32,000 nucleotides of DNA from Cuniculiplasma divulgatum. GTDB taxonomy: Archaea; Thermoplasmatota; Thermoplasmata; Thermoplasmatales; Thermoplasmataceae. Shown here in pieces: positions 7,134 through 14,277 of this stretch. The translations under genes were made by a program, and so were the position numbers. Under the pieces are notes generated by a model that saw only the letters and a list, made by a program, of their open reading frames with translations, ran no database searches and was not told the DNA's origin. Numbering within the stretch: position 1 is the first letter of the stretch; every line of letters starts with the position of its first letter. Where the stretch lies: positions 1,080,001 to 1,112,000 of the forward strand of contig NZ_LT671858.1 of the NCBI RefSeq assembly GCF_900083515.1, written 5' to 3'.

Positions 7134-9410
7134 TCAAAACCTGATGTTTGAAACGCTGAAGTTCTGTGCTGATGTTCCATTGGTATAAAGTTCGTAGTTA
7201 AATACTGTTGTAACGGGAACAATATGGAACATATTGCTTATTGCATATATCCTGGTGAAATTTATATTTCCATATCTTTGAATAAATATGTACTGGTTTA
7301 TACCTGAATAATACGTATTTCCACTTACTGTTCTATTCATCCCAATGTAAATATCATAGATTCCATTTATAGTCATTTCTACTCCAACAAAATTTTTAAT
7401 CTTGTCATTTGTCACAGAGGTCCCATTTCCTGAGTAGGAATAATTAAAGTTAAGATTATCCCCTGAATTCTTTAAATAAGATAGGTTTACTGCAGAATTT
7501 GAAAGCCTTATACAGTTAATCTTCGAGATATTATGATCGGGTGAAAGGGAAATCGTAAAACCGTTACCTGATTTACCATTCCCGTTATTTAAGTGGTAAT
7601 TAAATCGATTACTGATCTGACTTGTGTCAACACCCCAGCATAAAAATGGAGATTTCAGGTTGTTTGTTGGATATTGAAGATTGTAGTTTGCAATCCCTAT
7701 TCTGTTTATCTTTGGAGCTTTGACAGTAATATAATCACTAAGAAAGTTATAGTATGCCTGAATCCTAAAGGTGGTACCCTGTTTCAACAGATATGCATAT
7801 GATTCAGGATATGCGGTTACATAATTTTGCCCAACATGAAGTGATGAAGATGCGTACCAAAGCATGCCATTATAGTTACCTTCCGTAGCGGTACTGGGAA
7901 TTATTCTAAAATAAATTGGAGAGGTAAGATTAGAACCTAGCGCTGGCTGGTAAGTGATGCTGATATTCATAGATGTTATGTATCCAGGAATGCACTGCTG
8001 ATCTGACATATTTTCAACTGCATTTATGTGGTAAATATTACTATCATTATCATTGTATGATAAATAGATCGACCCGGCAGTCGTTAAAGATATAATTATT
8101 ATAACTATTACTGCGAACGTTATATTCTTCTGCAAATATTTCCTGATACCTGTTATATAAATACCTGTGTTTAGTGGCTTTGCCCTAATATCAGAGAGCG
8201 TTGGTGGTTTTATGTTTTCTTCTCTTAAATAATCTGCAAAACTTATAACGATTAAAAGCGACCAGTCAACAATATACCCAAGCAGTACCCTGTAATTTAC
8301 AAGGAACATGAGCATAGGAAAGATAAATAGTGCGTACTTCAGCTTACTGTAGAAACGTACATAAAAGAGGAAGGTAATTATTATCGTTGCTAAGAATATA
8401 AGTGTAAAAACAGTGGATGGAATTTTAAACAATCCTGTGAATGAAAGTTCCGAAAAACCTATGCCTATACCAAGAACAGGCTGGAATTCGGCTTCGACGA
8501 TGTTCCTAAGCCAGTCATAAGGCTGCATAATTATAAAAGGAAGGTTGGTGAGGAGAAAAGAAAACGCGGCGAGACTAAAGAAGACGAAAGACTGCTTGAA
8601 AGATTTTCCTTTTTCCATGAAAATCATAAAGATAAGAAACGGAAAGGCAACTATAGCCAGCTGCTTGGATGAAATTGATAAGCCGTAAAATAGGCCAGAT
8701 AGCCAGGGTTTTTCCCTGAAGATATAGGCCAACACAAGAAAGAAAATCCATAGTATATCAGTTGAACCTCCTATTGAAAGCCCGAATGTATATACACTTA
8801 ACATTATTATTAAGGAAAAATAAGGTAAAATCTTCTCCATATGAGTTTTCCTTAAATATAGAAAAACAGCCAGAAAATTAAGGGCTGAAAATATGAATAA
8901 GGTTGTATAATCAGGAAGATGGAAATATACAACTGGTAGAAATGCAAGAACCGACATTCCAGGATATAACAATATTTCCACCAGTTTACCATTCAATCCC
9001 GGTGTTACATAAAGTGAATATGGCTTTATGTAACTGAATGCACCAAGCATGTTGCTTTTAATATATGGGTCTTTGCCCTCAAGAAAAATTTTCGCAGCAT
9101 ATGTTTGAAGTATAATTTCATCGGTTAATGCATTGGGATATAATGTTGATATAACAAAGAAAAGTTGTACAATTGATAACACAAAACCAATATAAGGAAG
9201 GTTTTTGATAATTTTTGATTCTTTTATGCTGGTTAGAAAAACAAACATAAGAATAATTCCTAGAACGACTAGGATTACTCCATTAATTATTGAACCATAA
9301 TCTAGATAACTCGTATAATTTATAGATATGAATGGTAAAATAATGAATACTAAGCCAAAAACAAAATAGCGGATTCGGCTCAACTTCTTAACTTCGGTTT
9401 CTGACTTCAT
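7134..9410 (-). CDS. Polytopic GT-C-like membrane glycosyltransferase (GT87/DUF2029, PimE-like) with large C-terminal sequon-rich ectodomain
   Basis: 758-aa ORF. The N-terminal ~400 aa are multi-TM with a first-loop motif TDEIILQTYAAKIFLEGKDPY, then TDILWIFF and LSISSKQLAIVAFPFLIF. After one more TM helix comes a ~300-aa Asn/Ser/Tyr-rich extracellular domain. It is a paralogue of 10715-12304. The CDS call is firm; the family call is motif-based only. Confidence 0.6.
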   Translation of the reverse strand: MKSETEVKKLSRIRYFVFGLVFIILPFISINYTSYLDYGSIINGVILVVLGIILMFVFLTSIKESKIIKNLPYIGFVLSIVQLFFVISTLYPNALTDEIILQTYAAKIFLEGKDPYIKSNMLGAFSYIKPYSLYVTPGLNGKLVEILLYPGMSVLAFLPVVYFHLPDYTTLFIFSALNFLAVFLYLRKTHMEKILPYFSLIIMLSVYTFGLSIGGSTDILWIFFLVLAYIFREKPWLSGLFYGLSISSKQLAIVAFPFLIFMIFMEKGKSFKQSFVFFSLAAFSFLLTNLPFIIMQPYDWLRNIVEAEFQPVLGIGIGFSELSFTGLFKIPSTVFTLIFLATIIITFLFYVRFYSKLKYALFIFPMLMFLVNYRVLLGYIVDWSLLIVISFADYLREENIKPPTLSDIRAKPLNTGIYITGIRKYLQKNITFAVIVIIIISLTTAGSIYLSYNDNDSNIYHINAVENMSDQQCIPGYITSMNISITYQPALGSNLTSPIYFRIIPSTATEGNYNGMLWYASSSLHVGQNYVTAYPESYAYLLKQGTTFRIQAYYNFLSDYITVKAPKINRIGIANYNLQYPTNNLKSPFLCWGVDTSQISNRFNYHLNNGNGKSGNGFTISLSPDHNISKINCIRLSNSAVNLSYLKNSGDNLNFNYSYSGNGTSVTNDKIKNFVGVEMTINGIYDIYIGMNRTVSGNTYYSGINQYIFIQRYGNINFTRIYAISNMFHIVPVTTVFNYELYTNGTSAQNFSVSNIRF

Positions 9411-9467
9411 ATACAGATCAAATAAAACTAAATTTAAAAGAAGTTGTTAAAGATTGTTATTGTATCA

Positions 9468-10457
9468 TTATAAATGCCATACTACACCCTGACTTCCCCC
9501 GAAGTTTGTCGAGAACGAAGCCAGAATGCCGATACCCGTAGCAAGCATATAATTTACACTGAATGCAGTTAAGAGAAATATCATTGCAAAATATATTGCA
9601 GATCCAAGACTGCTCATCATATTATATCTTGCGTACTTTCTCAGTACTGAGCCACTACTCCTTCTTCTGCGATATGTCCAGTAATTGTTTAGTATGAAGT
9701 TGCTGACAATCGATGCTTCTAGAGCCAGTATGGCTCCCATATATAGTGGATCATGAAAACCACCTACTATTAACTTCATCATCAACAGGTTAAGAATTGC
9801 CCCTGAGATTCCAACAACAAGAAATTTAACCATCAGGTAGTCTGAAAGATTGAGTAATAATTTAAGGTATCTTATAAATTCCTTGATTCCAAACTTACTC
9901 TTTCCTGCAGCCCTTTTATTGAATCTGTATGGAACCTCAACAACATTCCTGGTGCCAGATGCAACCAGCACTTCTAGAAGAACCTTGTATCCGTTTGACT
10001 TGATCTGTTCTGGTTCTATAATGTCCCTTTTGAACCCAAAAAATCCTGACATTGGATCTTTTATTCCTTCTGTTTCCTGTAAGTTTATGTGAGCTAAAAG
10101 TGTAGCTACTTTAGATATCATTCCCCTTGAGAAGCTAAAATCGCTTTTTCCTCCCCTAATATATCTTGATGCAATTGCAACATCCTTTCCCTTCTTTAAC
10201 TCTCTTAAAATTCTGGGAACTACCTCTGGAGGATGCTGTAAATCACTATCCATTACAACTACGTATTTACTGCTGGATGCCAGCATTCCATCCCTAATGG
10301 CTGTGGCAATACCCAGCTTACCTTCTCTTTTGACCAATACAATATTCGTGTATTTCGCAGCAAGCTTTTCTACAACATTTGACGTACCGTCAGGGCTGTT
10401 GTCATCCACAACTACTATTTGATGATCAATATTCATATCTTCCAAACGGTGTATCAA
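9468..10457 (-). CDS. Dolichol/polyprenol-phosphate mannosyltransferase-like GT2 with C-terminal GtrA-type 4-TM domain; N-terminus probably extends upstream (see findings)
   Basis: IVVVDDNSPDGT, VVVMDSDLQHPPE, IASRYIRGGK and DPMSGFFGFKR are DPM1/Dol-P-Man-synthase-like blocks. The C-terminal FLVVGISGAILNLLMMKLIV... resembles GtrA. The track start is a TTG at 10457, but the GT2 PxYNE block (SIIIPTYNE) is encoded in frame upstream of it. Confidence 0.85.
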   Translation of the reverse strand: MIHRLEDMNIDHQIVVVDDNSPDGTSNVVEKLAAKYTNIVLVKREGKLGIATAIRDGMLASSSKYVVVMDSDLQHPPEVVPRILRELKKGKDVAIASRYIRGGKSDFSFSRGMISKVATLLAHINLQETEGIKDPMSGFFGFKRDIIEPEQIKSNGYKVLLEVLVASGTRNVVEVPYRFNKRAAGKSKFGIKEFIRYLKLLLNLSDYLMVKFLVVGISGAILNLLMMKLIVGGFHDPLYMGAILALEASIVSNFILNNYWTYRRRRSSGSVLRKYARYNMMSSLGSAIYFAMIFLLTAFSVNYMLATGIGILASFSTNFGGSQGVVWHL

Positions 10458-10520
10458 TATAGGTATGTTGCGCGATTCGTTATATGTCGGAATTATGATA
10501 GATAGTTCAGGAATAAAGCT

Positions 10521-10526
10521 CCCCCC
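10521..10526. repeat. C6 (G6 on the coding strand) homopolymer between an out-of-frame ATG (10539) and the GT2 reading frame
   Basis: Read directly: ...gct cccccc atat... . Loss of one base would fuse ATG-TTG-ACT-ATA-TGG-GG to the SFIPELSIIIPTYNE frame. Confidence 0.9.
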
Positions 10527-10609
10527 ATATAGTCAACATAATATCTTTTAGGATATTAAATTTTTTCTATGTCAATATTTAAAAATATATTGCTAGTTTA
10601 AAAGAGTAT

Positions 10610-10625
10610 TTATGCATCTGCATAA
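10610..10625. repeat. Perfect 7+7 palindrome TTATGCA-tc-TGCATAA in the intergenic region upstream of the Dol-P-Man synthase gene
   Basis: Read directly. The arms are 10610-10616 and 10619-10625 with a 2-nt spacer, which is too short for a hairpin loop. That favours a dimeric protein-binding site. Confidence 0.6.
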
Positions 10626-10714
10626 GAATCTTTATCAACATTTATTAGATTAGCTGCCTCGTGTCTGACTGATTTCCACTCTAATTTGTTTTTAAAACGA
10701 TTAAAGTAATTCTC

Positions 10715-12304
10715 CTAAACATTTATATTCTTTCCTATATCTATATGGTACCAGGTTTCAAGATTTGAGTTGTAAGCTATGATTACATAGCTGTTGTGCT
10801 CTTCAAGAAAATATGATGTGTCATTGGTGTGTATATGAAACGATGTATACAATTTTCCTGAAGCGGGTTTAAACTCAGTAGAATTCCAGAAAAAACCATT
10901 TGGATTGTTCAAAAAACCATCTTCAAGTATTCTGAATCTTAATGAAAGATTTTTAATCTCGCTTGAATATGTAACATTAACATAGAGACAATTAACACTT
11001 CCAGTACTATTCATACCTTCTGGTGTTACGGATTCTATTTTTATTTTTTGCTTATATGAACTGTCATTCTCCAGAAATACAAAGGTTGGGAGCAATATGA
11101 TCAGTACCAACATCACCGGCACCATTATCCGGTAAATTTTCTTTATTTTATTGCTGTTTAGATGTATTGCCTGGTAAAATTTCTGAATAAACTGAAATGA
11201 AAAATCTTTCCTTTGCTCTATGGTATTTCCCTTTCTAATTATATATGGCAATGTTGAAAGAGTCAGTATTGGCCAGTACATTAAATAATTCTCCAGAAGT
11301 CTGAAATTGAATATCAGAACTATAATAGGGAGGGCTGTTAAAGAATATTTTAAGGTGTCAAATTTATATGCATAAATCAATACAAAGAAGAGCCACACGG
11401 ATATCATTAGAGTGGTAAAGAACTCCCTGTCTGCAAATGGTATATATCCAGATATATAAAATTGAGATAAACCAAATCCTATACCAATTATTGGGGCATT
11501 TTCAGGTGCAAGGATCGAAGTGAAGAATGTTGTGGGACCCCTCATGATAAACGGTAAATTTAATAAAATAAAAGAAACGGCTGCCATTAAAGTAAATTCT
11601 AATAATTTCCTACTCCCGTATCTTTTGTATATAAATATTAGAAGAAATGGGAGGATAAATATGGGTAGCTGTTTGGATGCAAGAGAAAGACCAAAAAGAA
11701 TACCAGGAATATAACGTTTTTGAAGTAGCATCAGAGAAGAAGCAAGAAAAGTAATCCAAATTATATCGGTTATCCCATTCAATGAGAAAAATATCAAATT
11801 TATATTGAAAAGTGAAACAGCAATAGCCAATGGAGCCATAAAAGCTAGGTCTCTTTCTATAAATTCCAGGGCAATAAGACTTAGGAGCAATAAAGTAAAG
11901 AAGAAGAGGACTACTTCAGGATTTACGTGAAGAAGTATGAATGGTATAAGAATTAAAAATGATAAATCAGGATATTGAAGATTTGTGACGTACCCTCCGG
12001 AAAGCTTTGGAGTGAGGCTTGAAAGTGGAACACCATAGGATTCCATACTTTTCAACGCGTACTGAAAGCCATAAGGATTTAAACCAGATAGAAATCTCTT
12101 TGCCGATAGTACCTCAATGGCGAATTCGTCTGTATATGTTTGTTTCATTGACATGCCTATTAAAAAGATTACTGAACCAACGCTAATTATTGCAATTATG
12201 ATTACTAGCCTAAGAAATCGTTTGGTTATTTCCCTTCTTTTACCCGATAGCGTAGAAAGTACTATAAAGAGAAACCCGAAGATAGCGAGAAGAAATTCAA
12301 TCAT
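10715..12304 (-). CDS. Polytopic GT-C-like membrane glycosyltransferase (GT87/DUF2029, PimE-like) with C-terminal ectodomain; N-terminus probably extends upstream (see findings)
   Basis: 529-aa ORF. Motifs are shared with 7134-9410: TDEFAIEVLSAKRFLSGLNPY, TDIIWITF, LSLASKQLPIFILPFLLIF. After a late TM helix comes a ~120-aa sequon-rich domain (VNVTYSSEIKNLSLRFRIL...NGFFWNST). Confidence 0.6.
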   Translation of the reverse strand: MIEFLLAIFGFLFIVLSTLSGKRREITKRFLRLVIIIAIISVGSVIFLIGMSMKQTYTDEFAIEVLSAKRFLSGLNPYGFQYALKSMESYGVPLSSLTPKLSGGYVTNLQYPDLSFLILIPFILLHVNPEVVLFFFTLLLLSLIALEFIERDLAFMAPLAIAVSLFNINLIFFSLNGITDIIWITFLASSLMLLQKRYIPGILFGLSLASKQLPIFILPFLLIFIYKRYGSRKLLEFTLMAAVSFILLNLPFIMRGPTTFFTSILAPENAPIIGIGFGLSQFYISGYIPFADREFFTTLMISVWLFFVLIYAYKFDTLKYSLTALPIIVLIFNFRLLENYLMYWPILTLSTLPYIIRKGNTIEQRKDFSFQFIQKFYQAIHLNSNKIKKIYRIMVPVMLVLIILLPTFVFLENDSSYKQKIKIESVTPEGMNSTGSVNCLYVNVTYSSEIKNLSLRFRILEDGFLNNPNGFFWNSTEFKPASGKLYTSFHIHTNDTSYFLEEHNSYVIIAYNSNLETWYHIDIGKNINV

Positions 12305-12441
12305 TATGTAGAATGGGCCTGAATAACCAACATAACCATATATGCTATATGGAAGATAAATCAGGAGAATACCAAGAGCAAGGAATCCAATCCTCTGGAT
12401 TATAAGATCAAAGTTCTCAAGATTCTCCCTTTCTATTTAAA

Positions 12442-14277
12442 TCACCTGCTATTAGCGCTGTACTGCTTCAATTTAAGTTCCTGCTTAATAACTGTAATTG
12501 AATCGAGACTTAAATAAATTTTTATATTACGGAAGTATGAATTCGATCTTATTTTTATGAAATCGTTCCCTTTCCCTATGACAGATATCTCCTTATTCAG
12601 CGATAATAATGAAAGATTGTTCTTTCCGGATAACCCCTTTAGAGTTAGATTATAGCAACCGGGAGCAATGAGACCTACATTATAATAGCTTATTCCCTTA
12701 TCTTTCTGGATTACTGATGATGAATTCTCATTCAAATAACCGTATATTACTGGTGATAAAACTGAATTAAGCTGATAAAGGGCGACTCCCTTATAGAAAT
12801 AAGTGAGTTTATAATTAAAATTATTTAGCAGGTAATTTATTTTAATTATGGGAGAATTATTAACATGAATCCCTGTTGCAACAGGCGATGTGAAAAAATA
12901 ACTGTAAGGATCTGTTATGATATAATCTGGAATAGTTGTATTGAAATTAGAATTTAAACAGACTGGCATATATCCCTGTTCCAACTCAGGTAAGTTTCCT
13001 GCTATTAATACTGAAGAACCATGTGGAATATTGTTGATGAATGACATTAGATAGCCATCAGCCTTTGTTGGAATTATCTTTTCATATGTGCTATAAAGGA
13101 TGGTTGAAGACCCCACGACGTATTCTTCCTGAGGATGATCATTCTGCTGTGCTGGAATTAAATTTCCTATAGGCGTAAAGAGATAGAAAAGAATTATGTT
13201 TAAAATTAGTATAATCACAAGCAATTTTCTAATATTGAACCTCTTTCCTGATATTTTAATGAATCTTCTCAACCCAAATATAAATGCAATGAACAGTGTG
13301 GATACATAAAGACTTGGATACTGGAAAAACATCTGAGATTCATAAGGTAGGTATGAATTTGTAAAGAGGAGTAAGCCATAGGGTAAGAGTAAAATCAAAA
13401 ATTCAATTCCAAGAAGAGGTATAAAGAGAAATGGTAACATGATTCTGACAAAAAATTCAGCCTTAAACCATACATTACCATAAATCCCAGGGTTAAGATT
13501 TATGCCAATATAGTGGGAGGGGTAAAATTTTAGGTAATATATGCTTGGGAGAATAAATATTATTATCGCAAATATTGCCTCTGATAATTCATACTTCATA
13601 ATATTGAATTTACCAGATGATATCCATCTCTGCATAACCATGATAGCAAGGAACAGGAATACAATCACTGGAGACATTAGGTCTGTGATAGAAGCCAGAG
13701 AGAGGAAAATCAACCACTTTGATGTATCTCTTCTAATATAATAATATACTCCTAGCAGGAAGAATGTTGGAAAGAATGCCATATAATGGAAATCAAACCA
13801 GAATACACCTGATAGTGGATAATAGAGATAAAATATTAAACTGATCAAAAGGGCAAATTTTTTTGACTTTAACACTTCGCTGGCGATCAAATAAACTACA
13901 ACTCCAGAAAATGATAGAAAAAAATCCTGTAGAAAAAGGAGAAAATATTCTTTTGGAAATAGAGCATAAATAAATCCAATAGGGATATATATTAGCTTAT
14001 TTGTGGCTACTCCACCACTCATTACCTGTCCAAGAAAGGTCTGCCCGTAAATTACGTTATATGCAAGGGATGCATTAACTCCCAGATCATAAACATTCTC
14101 TGAAAATGATAAATATCTCAAATATGAAATTGATGAGTAAATTACTGAAAAAGAAATAAAAAGAAATAAAACCCATCTAATTTTCCATATTTCCGTGTAG
14201 ATCTTTCCAATGCTAAAGTTTCTTTTGGATTTCTGATTTTTAGGGATATCCTCTTTATCACCTTCATTATACATCAA
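12442..14277 (-). CDS. Large polytopic membrane protein, DUF2079-like (putative GT-C-type glycosyltransferase) with C-terminal extracellular domain
   Basis: 611-aa ORF with about 12 hydrophobic helices. The first loop after TM1 reads LRYLSFSENVYDLGVNASLAYNVIYGQ, resembling my recollection of the DUF2079 FDLG-type loop. The C-terminal ~230 aa are non-hydrophobic and Asn/Tyr-rich. The track start is TTG 14277; ATG 14274 is more likely. Confidence 0.5.
   Translation of the reverse strand: MMYNEGDKEDIPKNQKSKRNFSIGKIYTEIWKIRWVLFLFISFSVIYSSISYLRYLSFSENVYDLGVNASLAYNVIYGQTFLGQVMSGGVATNKLIYIPIGFIYALFPKEYFLLFLQDFFLSFSGVVVYLIASEVLKSKKFALLISLIFYLYYPLSGVFWFDFHYMAFFPTFFLLGVYYYIRRDTSKWLIFLSLASITDLMSPVIVFLFLAIMVMQRWISSGKFNIMKYELSEAIFAIIIFILPSIYYLKFYPSHYIGINLNPGIYGNVWFKAEFFVRIMLPFLFIPLLGIEFLILLLPYGLLLFTNSYLPYESQMFFQYPSLYVSTLFIAFIFGLRRFIKISGKRFNIRKLLVIILILNIILFYLFTPIGNLIPAQQNDHPQEEYVVGSSTILYSTYEKIIPTKADGYLMSFINNIPHGSSVLIAGNLPELEQGYMPVCLNSNFNTTIPDYIITDPYSYFFTSPVATGIHVNNSPIIKINYLLNNFNYKLTYFYKGVALYQLNSVLSPVIYGYLNENSSSVIQKDKGISYYNVGLIAPGCYNLTLKGLSGKNNLSLLSLNKEISVIGKGNDFIKIRSNSYFRNIKIYLSLDSITVIKQELKLKQYSANSR

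Follow-up and report, generated by a model that had tools for sequence, protein, structure and literature searches.

The genome of Cuniculiplasma divulgatum consists of one contig (1,938,699 bp, 37% G+C), of which we analysed a stretch of 32,000 nucleotides (hereafter, the window). Its minus strand carries a gene that combines a GT2 glycosyltransferase domain with a GtrA-type membrane domain; its reading frame and the sequence elements around its 5′ end are listed in Table 1. The putative dolichol-phosphate (Dol-P) sugar synthase gene lies between two GT-C genes, the second of which is GT87-like with weak Pfam hits. The three genes span positions 7134-12436 of the window, and the same order is kept in every Cuniculiplasma contig examined (loci L102-L130).

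The 5′ end of the gene lacks an obvious start codon. According to the original prediction, the first canonical start on the minus strand is TTG 10457-10455, and the same frame stays open upstream as far as TGA 10535-10533. Both statements were correct when checked in the sequence: the 25 codons ahead of TTG 10457, which encode LYGGSFIPELSIIIPTYNESRNIPI, include no ATG, GTG or TTG. The placements of ATG 10539-10537, which reads MLTIWGELYS-stop in the adjacent frame over the G6 run (10526-10521), and of ATT 10514-10512, located 4 nt past GGGGGGAG, also proved accurate. The claim that the conserved N-terminal block of GT2 enzymes lies upstream of any canonical start was borne out by the PF00535 (GT2) profile alignment, in which profile position 1 falls on residue 11 of the stop-to-stop translation. 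This residue, the S of SIIIPTYNE, precedes TTG 10457 by 15 codons. A second out-of-frame ATG (10528-10526) was absent from the original prediction, and its G is the first G of the G6 run.

Table 1. Features of the synthase locus and the neighbouring GT-C gene (window positions), and other C. divulgatum genes whose Pfam domain begins ahead of the first canonical start (coordinates with the prefix C1).
Feature	Position	Strand	Remarks
GT2 + GtrA-type gene, stop to stop	9468-10532	minus	reading frame
Proposed full CDS, putative polyprenol-phosphate (Dol-P) sugar synthase	9468..10514	minus	348 codons from ATT plus stop (MPELSIIIPTYNE...VVWHL)
TTG, first canonical in-frame start (329-aa version)	10455..10457	minus	judged fortuitous
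ATC, start of the 343-aa public version (MIIPTYNE)	10497..10499	minus	
ATT, proposed start codon	10512..10514	minus	
G-rich Shine-Dalgarno-like element GGGGGGAG	10519..10526	minus	contains the G6 run 10521-10526
Second out-of-frame ATG (10528-10526)	10493..10528	minus	11-codon ORF MGGALFLNYLS-stop; overlaps the SD element and ATT
Out-of-frame ATG (10539-10537)	10507..10539	minus	ORF MLTIWGELYS-stop, across G6
In-frame TGA bounding the reading frame upstream	10533..10535	minus	
A-rich BRE-like run and TATA-like box AAAAAATTTAATAT	10553..10566	minus	conserved
Start region of neighbouring GT-C gene (529/573-aa gene)	12434..12447	minus	SD AGGTGAT 12441-12447, TAA 12437-12439, ATA 12434-12436
trpF	C1:1436126-1436707		CTG; ATG/TTG in eight congeners, stays CTG in three
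NAD epimerase	C1:1014608-1015558		CTG two codons past TGA; TTG in four congeners, stays CTG in two
TRM methyltransferase	C1:1155303-1156418		candidate start ATA
ROK kinase	C1:567032-568033		candidate starts ATT/CTG
Acyl-CoA ligase	C1:1187507-1188916		candidate starts ACG/CTG
Crotonase	C1:1662006-1662752		candidate starts AAG/ATA
MFS transporter	C1:1362305-1363456		candidate start CTG
PIN protein	C1:1149637-1149990		candidate start ATT
Lhr-type helicase	C1:1228762-1233939		DEAD domain start 14 residues ahead of the first canonical start; perfect AGGAGGTG upstream of it

The gene is intact and appears to encode a polyprenol-phosphate (dolichol-phosphate) sugar synthase of the type represented by Pyrococcus DPMS. 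The product matches the Pfam families PF00535 (6.6e-33) and PF04138 (2.4e-18). With a start at ATT 10514, the 348-aa product aligns with the Pyrococcus furiosus enzyme (PfDPMS, 5MLZ; E = 5.4e-69) over residues 3-346, including IIPTYNE and MDSDLQHPPE. The architecture of a type III DPMS is present: an N-terminal PxYNE loop and a DxD motif lie within the GT-A domain, and a GtrA-type four-helix membrane domain comes after it. It resembles that of type III PfDPMS (5MLZ; Gandini et al. 2017, PMC5526996), in which a GT-A catalytic domain with a PTYNE loop is joined to a four-helix GtrA-type membrane domain. The D-x-D-LQH motif reads DSDLQH in the Cuniculiplasma enzyme and DADLQH in PfDPMS. As far as the deposited sequence tells, PfDPMS differs in having a normal start codon. 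The Cuniculiplasma enzyme may differ from PfDPMS in its specificity for sugar and lipid, and mannose transfer from GDP-mannose to dolichol phosphate is a putative activity suggested by sequence similarity; PfDPMS itself shows some donor promiscuity (PMC5526996).

In PfDPMS, only approximately four residues precede the beta-1/PTYNE element; within the PTYNE loop, Tyr10 is in contact with the ribose of the donor and Glu12 holds the acceptor loop locked (PMC5526996). The 348-aa product would have a normal N-terminus by this standard, with the alignment to PfDPMS beginning at residue 3. A start at TTG 10457 or at the next ATG would delete both the beta-1 strand and the donor-binding PTYNE loop.

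The 5′ region was gathered from independent assemblies in NCBI, JGI, ENA and Logan, which derive from different samples and assemblers. The segment ATGGGGGGAGCTTT-ATT is identical in all 18 of them (10 contigs of the same species and eight contigs of a sister species at 95% identity). Four more distant Cuniculiplasma lineages align with it without gaps but lack the homopolymer. The corresponding segment is ATGGAGGGATCATC-ATT in the lineage at 86% identity, ATGGAGGGAACCTC-ATT in the lineage at 82-84%, TAGGAGGGATACGG-ATT in the lineage at 72% and AGAAGGGGGTATAG-ATT in the lineage at 70%. The site of G6 is occupied by GGAGGG in L003, L112-118 and L127-128 and by AAGGGGG in L129-130, with zero indels. 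Because the relatives without a homopolymer keep the frame gaplessly, the relation between the frames is independent of the homopolymer length, and the tract is invariant where it occurs.

A comparison with orthologues had been suggested along with the original prediction, and it came out in favour of the long N-terminus: the SIIIPTYNE block is kept in all of them. Ahead of the IIIPTYNE strand, no in-frame ATG, GTG or TTG was found in the six lineages, except for a private TTG in one contig (L112), which is CTG in six sister contigs. At the position of ATT 10514, the codon ATT is identical in the six Cuniculiplasma lineages, which range from 70 to 95% identity. Such identity at the codon level is rare in this gene. 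In the six lineages, a single codon is kept in just two of the 15 columns that are entirely Ile and in nine of the 191 columns with an invariant residue.

The surroundings of ATT 10514 point in the same direction. The codons preceding it vary freely among the lineages (SF, II, NL, IR and V-stop), whereas the S/P-E-L-S sequence following it is conserved and changes almost only synonymously (CTA/CTG; TCT/TCG/TCC). Conservation at the protein level begins exactly at ATT, with purifying selection downstream. In the lineage at 70% identity (L129/L130), an in-frame TAG immediately precedes ATT, so that translation cannot start farther upstream there.

The counts of conserved codons should be read with two qualifications. 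The six ATT lineages are related, and the counts are therefore not independent. A tree of 14 orthologues gave no clear grouping of the ATT lineages into one clade. In addition, Ile is also kept at this position in L011, which has an ATG two codons upstream, and part of the conservation of ATT could therefore be a constraint at the protein level.

The G-rich element upstream of ATT is a strong and suitably spaced candidate for a Shine-Dalgarno (SD) sequence. The 3′ end of the 16S rRNA of the organism is GGATCACCTCCT, and its full SD complement is therefore AGGAGGTGATCC. The predicted SD/anti-SD duplex has an energy of −9.6 kcal/mol in C. divulgatum and −10.5 to −15.0 kcal/mol in the GGAGGG and AAGGGGG elements of its relatives. 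In all 11 Cuniculiplasma orthologues, duplexes of −9.6 to −15 kcal/mol are predicted, with a spacer of 5-6 nt to the start. A duplex of −9 is reached by 4-5% of random sites or internal ATT codons, compared with 15% of real gene starts. The SD register distance of the canonical genes of the genome peaks at 13-15, which the spacing of ATT fits.

AUU is the best reading in view of the invariant ATT with its SD element, the upstream stop, the onset of conservation at ATT and the fact that six lineages have no canonical start. We infer that translation most likely starts at AUU 10514-10512, giving a protein of 348 aa beginning with MPELSIIIPTYNE. An AUU start is also favoured by the candidate near-cognate starts of other C. 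divulgatum genes at sites that carry canonical start codons in relatives (see below). The recognised archaeal start codons are AUG, GUG and UUG, and aIF1 discriminates against others (PMC7531240, PMC6237735), which counts against the AUU start.

A promoter-like block is located upstream of these elements. In each of the six ATT lineages, the sequence AAAAA(T/C)TTAATA(T/A) recurs without gaps and always at the same distance. At the unambiguous ATG starts of the genome, SD 4-mers peak at −14 to −9, and TATA-like words peak at −28, a signature of leaderless transcripts. From this spacing, the transcript of the synthase gene is predicted to start approximately 23-26 nt downstream of the TATA-like box, at approximately 10528-10532, coinciding with ATG 10528 and the SD element or lying immediately ahead of them.

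Based on these features, initiation might proceed as follows. The BRE/TATA block would direct a transcript with a short leader of approximately 13-18 nt, in which the G-rich stretch with G6 would serve as the SD element and pair with the CCUCCU tail of the 16S rRNA. This pairing would position AUU, which follows the G run by 6 nt, in the ribosomal P site. The initiator tRNA would read AUU with a third-position mismatch and probably place Met at the start of the protein, and initiation at AUU would give a product with the N-terminus (M)PELSIIIPTYNESR. Both nearby ATGs are out of frame and would not be needed; the ATG at the predicted transcript start would yield at most a short non-conserved peptide. 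ATG 10528 may be kept by descent and by partial complementarity to the anti-SD sequence, and it could open a small competing leaderless ORF. A role for this ATG as part of the SD pairing itself was considered and rejected, because the 16S tail ends with CCUCCU and only the A and G of the ATG could pair.

The AUU reading is not new, as it has already been deposited; the present analysis adds comparative evidence for ATT and against its alternatives. The same gene occurs in public records in four lengths (348, 343, 329 and 322 aa). The 348-aa version, which begins with MPELSIIIPTYNE from the ATT start, is found as P0124 (an identical protein) and P0125 (OWP54328.1, Cuniculiplasma sp. C_DKE). The 343-aa version from ATC (MIIPTYNE) is P0134, and the 322-aa version from ATG is the one found on most metagenome contigs. 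Among the four circulating lengths, that of 348 aa alone has the whole N-terminus, and the versions of 329 and 322 aa lack the donor-binding strand. A mass spectrometry study of C. divulgatum lists proteins in its supplement (PMC7285479).

A start farther downstream, at ATC 10499 (343 aa), TTG 10457 (329 aa) or ATG 10436 (322 aa), is unlikely. All three versions exist publicly (P0134, P0002 and P0122), and TTG and ATG are canonical start codons. However, the TTG 10457 column is CTG or CTC in L113, L127, L129 and L004 and TTA in L006, and the Met of MNIDHQ, with which the 322-aa version starts, is replaced by Leu in P0009; neither codon is thus conserved as a start. A protein beginning at this TTG or ATG would lose beta-1 and the PTYNE loop, yet the corresponding stretch is under clear purifying selection and shows synonymous changes only. 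The ATC 10499 column is GTC in the 95% species, and this codon is 21 nt away from the SD element.

As a further alternative, we considered a programmed event on the G run, in which translation would start at an out-of-frame ATG and then reach the enzyme frame through DNA phase variation, transcriptional slippage at the transcript start, or −1/+1 ribosomal frameshifting on G_GGG_GGA. The protein would then begin with MGGSFIPELS or MLTIWGSFIPELS (the MGGSF and MLTIWGSF forms), and the event could act as an on/off or dosage switch of the glycan donor, one of the options left by the original prediction. The position of ATG 10528 lends some support to this model: it nearly coincides with the transcript start predicted from the conserved TATA box, as in leaderless mRNAs, and an ATG is kept there in 10 of 12 Cuniculiplasma lineages. 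In the frame of this ATG, G GGG GGA has the form of a slippery heptamer. The G6 run next to out-of-frame ATGs and the slippery-form heptamer are reminiscent of the phase-variable homopolymer tracts and programmed frameshift sites reviewed in PMC5009743.

The comparison with relatives leaves little room for such a switch, and we consider it very improbable. The tract length shows zero variation in 18 assemblies, and the heptamer is present in only two of the six lineages. L003, L112-118 and L127-130 lack the slippery or homopolymeric sequence, and yet they have the same missing start and the same ATT without an indel. The conserved out-of-frame ATG 10528 was likewise rejected as a real start codon: its position is TAG or AGA in L127-130, and the short ORFs opened at this position encode peptides of 2-11 residues that are not conserved. 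No stimulatory RNA structure was predicted in a fold of 10430-10532 (z = +1.26; 183 of 200 shuffled sequences were at least as stable), and a search of 10380-10760 against Rfam (E ≤ 1) produced no match. In its fixed tract length, the absence of the tract from relatives with the same gene structure and the lack of a stimulatory structure, the locus is unlike the systems reviewed in PMC5009743, and it behaves neither as a phase-variable tract nor as a programmed frameshift site.

The possibility that G6 is a homopolymer sequencing or assembly error, which had also been raised originally, is effectively refuted. Homopolymers are classic sites of indel errors, and a true G5 or G7 would put an ATG in frame: the removal of one G joins ATG 10539 to the enzyme frame, and the addition of one G joins ATG 10528. 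However, exactly six G residues are found in 18 independent assemblies (NCBI, JGI, ENA and Logan), and the relatives with GGAGGG are gapless with the same frame relation, so that the lack of an in-frame ATG does not depend on the tract. In the 95% sister species, TGA follows directly after the upstream ATG, and a G5 run would not rescue the frame there; in L003, ATG 10539 is missing. In addition, the cultured Cuniculiplasma genomes, presumably including that of the window, were sequenced by Illumina HiSeq (PMC5155288), and this technology is not prone to homopolymer errors. The remaining option of the original prediction, a non-canonical AUU start behind the SD-like GGGGGGAG, is the one supported by both the comparative evidence and the deposited annotation.

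There is next to no likelihood that the start has been lost and that the gene is decaying or expressed only as a truncated non-catalytic membrane protein. Although the gene has no canonical start and is truncated by gene callers, six lineages with identities as low as 70% keep the full-length frame including the N-terminal block, with changes that are mostly synonymous, and the synteny between the two GT-C genes is kept.

Orthologues outside the six ATT lineages have other codons in this region. Two outgroup orthologues have an ATG one or two codons upstream of the ATT column. In other Cuniculiplasma subclades, this column is ATC or ATA, 6 nt behind GAGGTG. In L004-L006 and L008-L010, the motif ATGAGGTG is found at the place of the G-rich element of C. 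divulgatum. The GTG within this motif is in frame and might be the start itself, or the motif might serve as the SD sequence for ATC or ATA 6 nt downstream. Since this in-frame GTG is located inside the SD-like motif, the L004-L010 subclade may start at GTG rather than at ATC or ATA.

AUU-initiated genes are known in bacteria, such as infC (IF3) and pcnB of Escherichia coli, and NCBI table 11 includes ATT, ATC, ATA and CTG among the possible starts. The synthase gene resembles infC and pcnB in that a near-cognate AUU replaces AUG behind an SD sequence, is conserved among relatives and is missed by standard gene callers. It differs from them in its archaeal host with eukaryotic-type initiation factors (aIF1, aIF1A and aIF2), in encoding a glycan-donor enzyme instead of a translation factor, and in that its AUU start is predicted from sequence. 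Nothing at the synthase locus suggests a feedback like the autoregulation of infC, and the idea that the level of aIF1 might tune the synthase gene in the fashion of infC is speculation. The probable AUU start of the synthase gene is an unremarkable instance of a known peculiarity, in which an SD sequence compensates for a weak codon. No new mechanism is revealed, and the reading as a phase-variable glycan switch is removed.

To our knowledge, initiation at codons other than AUG, GUG and UUG has hardly been studied in archaea. In ribosome profiling of Haloferax volcanii with harringtonine, approximately 30% of the putative alternative initiation sites were near-cognate, but these sites were left out of consideration by the authors as potential false positives (Gelsinger et al. 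2020, PMC7261190). The two cases are alike in pointing to near-cognate codons as archaeal initiation sites, at which ribosomes were seen in H. volcanii. However, the H. volcanii sites are alternative or internal, whereas the ATT of the synthase gene appears to be the only possible start of an essential-looking N-terminus that is conserved across species. The synthase gene would therefore represent a clean, cross-species conserved case of an archaeal gene that can start only at AUU. Because Cuniculiplasma is cultivable, a test of this start would be straightforward.

Nine further genes of the genome have a Pfam domain that starts upstream of their first canonical start, namely those for a TRM methyltransferase, trpF, an Lhr helicase, an acyl-CoA ligase, a ROK kinase, a crotonase, an MFS transporter, a PIN protein and an NAD epimerase. 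Most of them have a near-cognate codon at the SD distance of the genome behind an exact SD word. In trpF and the epimerase gene, whose CTG codons align with canonical starts in several congeners (Table 1), the SD sequence upstream is AGGAGG or AGGTGA. In the Lhr gene, no near-cognate codon was found at SD distance; the in-frame codons there are GAA and CAT, and a TTG is one base out of frame. In the genes for EamA, a C5 methylase, a methyltransferase, an HD protein, Toprim and ArsB, the Pfam domains begin after the first canonical start and do not bear on where translation begins. Together with the neighbouring GT-C gene described below, these observations support the view that at least nine other genes probably start at near-cognate codons (CUG, AUA, AUU and ACG).

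We also examined, across the genome, the in-frame codons that are located at SD distance (13-15 nt behind exact SD 5-mers) and ahead of the first canonical start. ATH codons alone were weakly enriched behind SD 5-mers, with a ratio of 1.3 compared with 0.87 for other codons. When the near-cognate codons were pooled, they accounted for 37 of 177 sites against a background of 12.6% (p = 0.0013). The pooled excess of approximately 15 sites, or approximately 1% of genes, is a rough lower bound. Since GGGGGG does not count as an exact SD 5-mer, the pooled set does not include the synthase gene. In a score of coding potential (codon usage) for the regions ahead of the starts, the synthase gene obtained 0.55 and ranked 237 of 362; this low rank indicates that the codon-usage score is not a sensitive screen.

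The wider question raised by the synthase gene is whether start-codon choice is generally relaxed in Cuniculiplasma, for which approximately ten genes offer support. Tentatively, the lineage might have a habit of tolerating near-cognate starts (AUU, AUA, CUG and ACG) behind a strong SD sequence. At least approximately 1% of its genes, among them two neighbours in the glycan island, would then have exchanged a canonical start for a weak one. Relaxed start proofreading, for example by aIF1, might underlie such a habit, expression might be tuned by it, and at the synthase locus the out-of-frame AUG mini-ORF could throttle AUU. We regard this broader proposal as possible but rather doubtful.

The neighbouring GT-C gene has no canonical start for its first membrane helix. 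Its ATA codon, which directly follows TAA, aligns with ATG in G003 and has an SD register distance of 14, and ATA 12434-12436 is probably the start of the gene. Together with the ATT of the synthase gene, two adjacent glycan genes would then start at AUH codons. In G010, TAC is present in place of this TAA, and the frame is open to an upstream GTG, which is used by the gene callers (576 aa).
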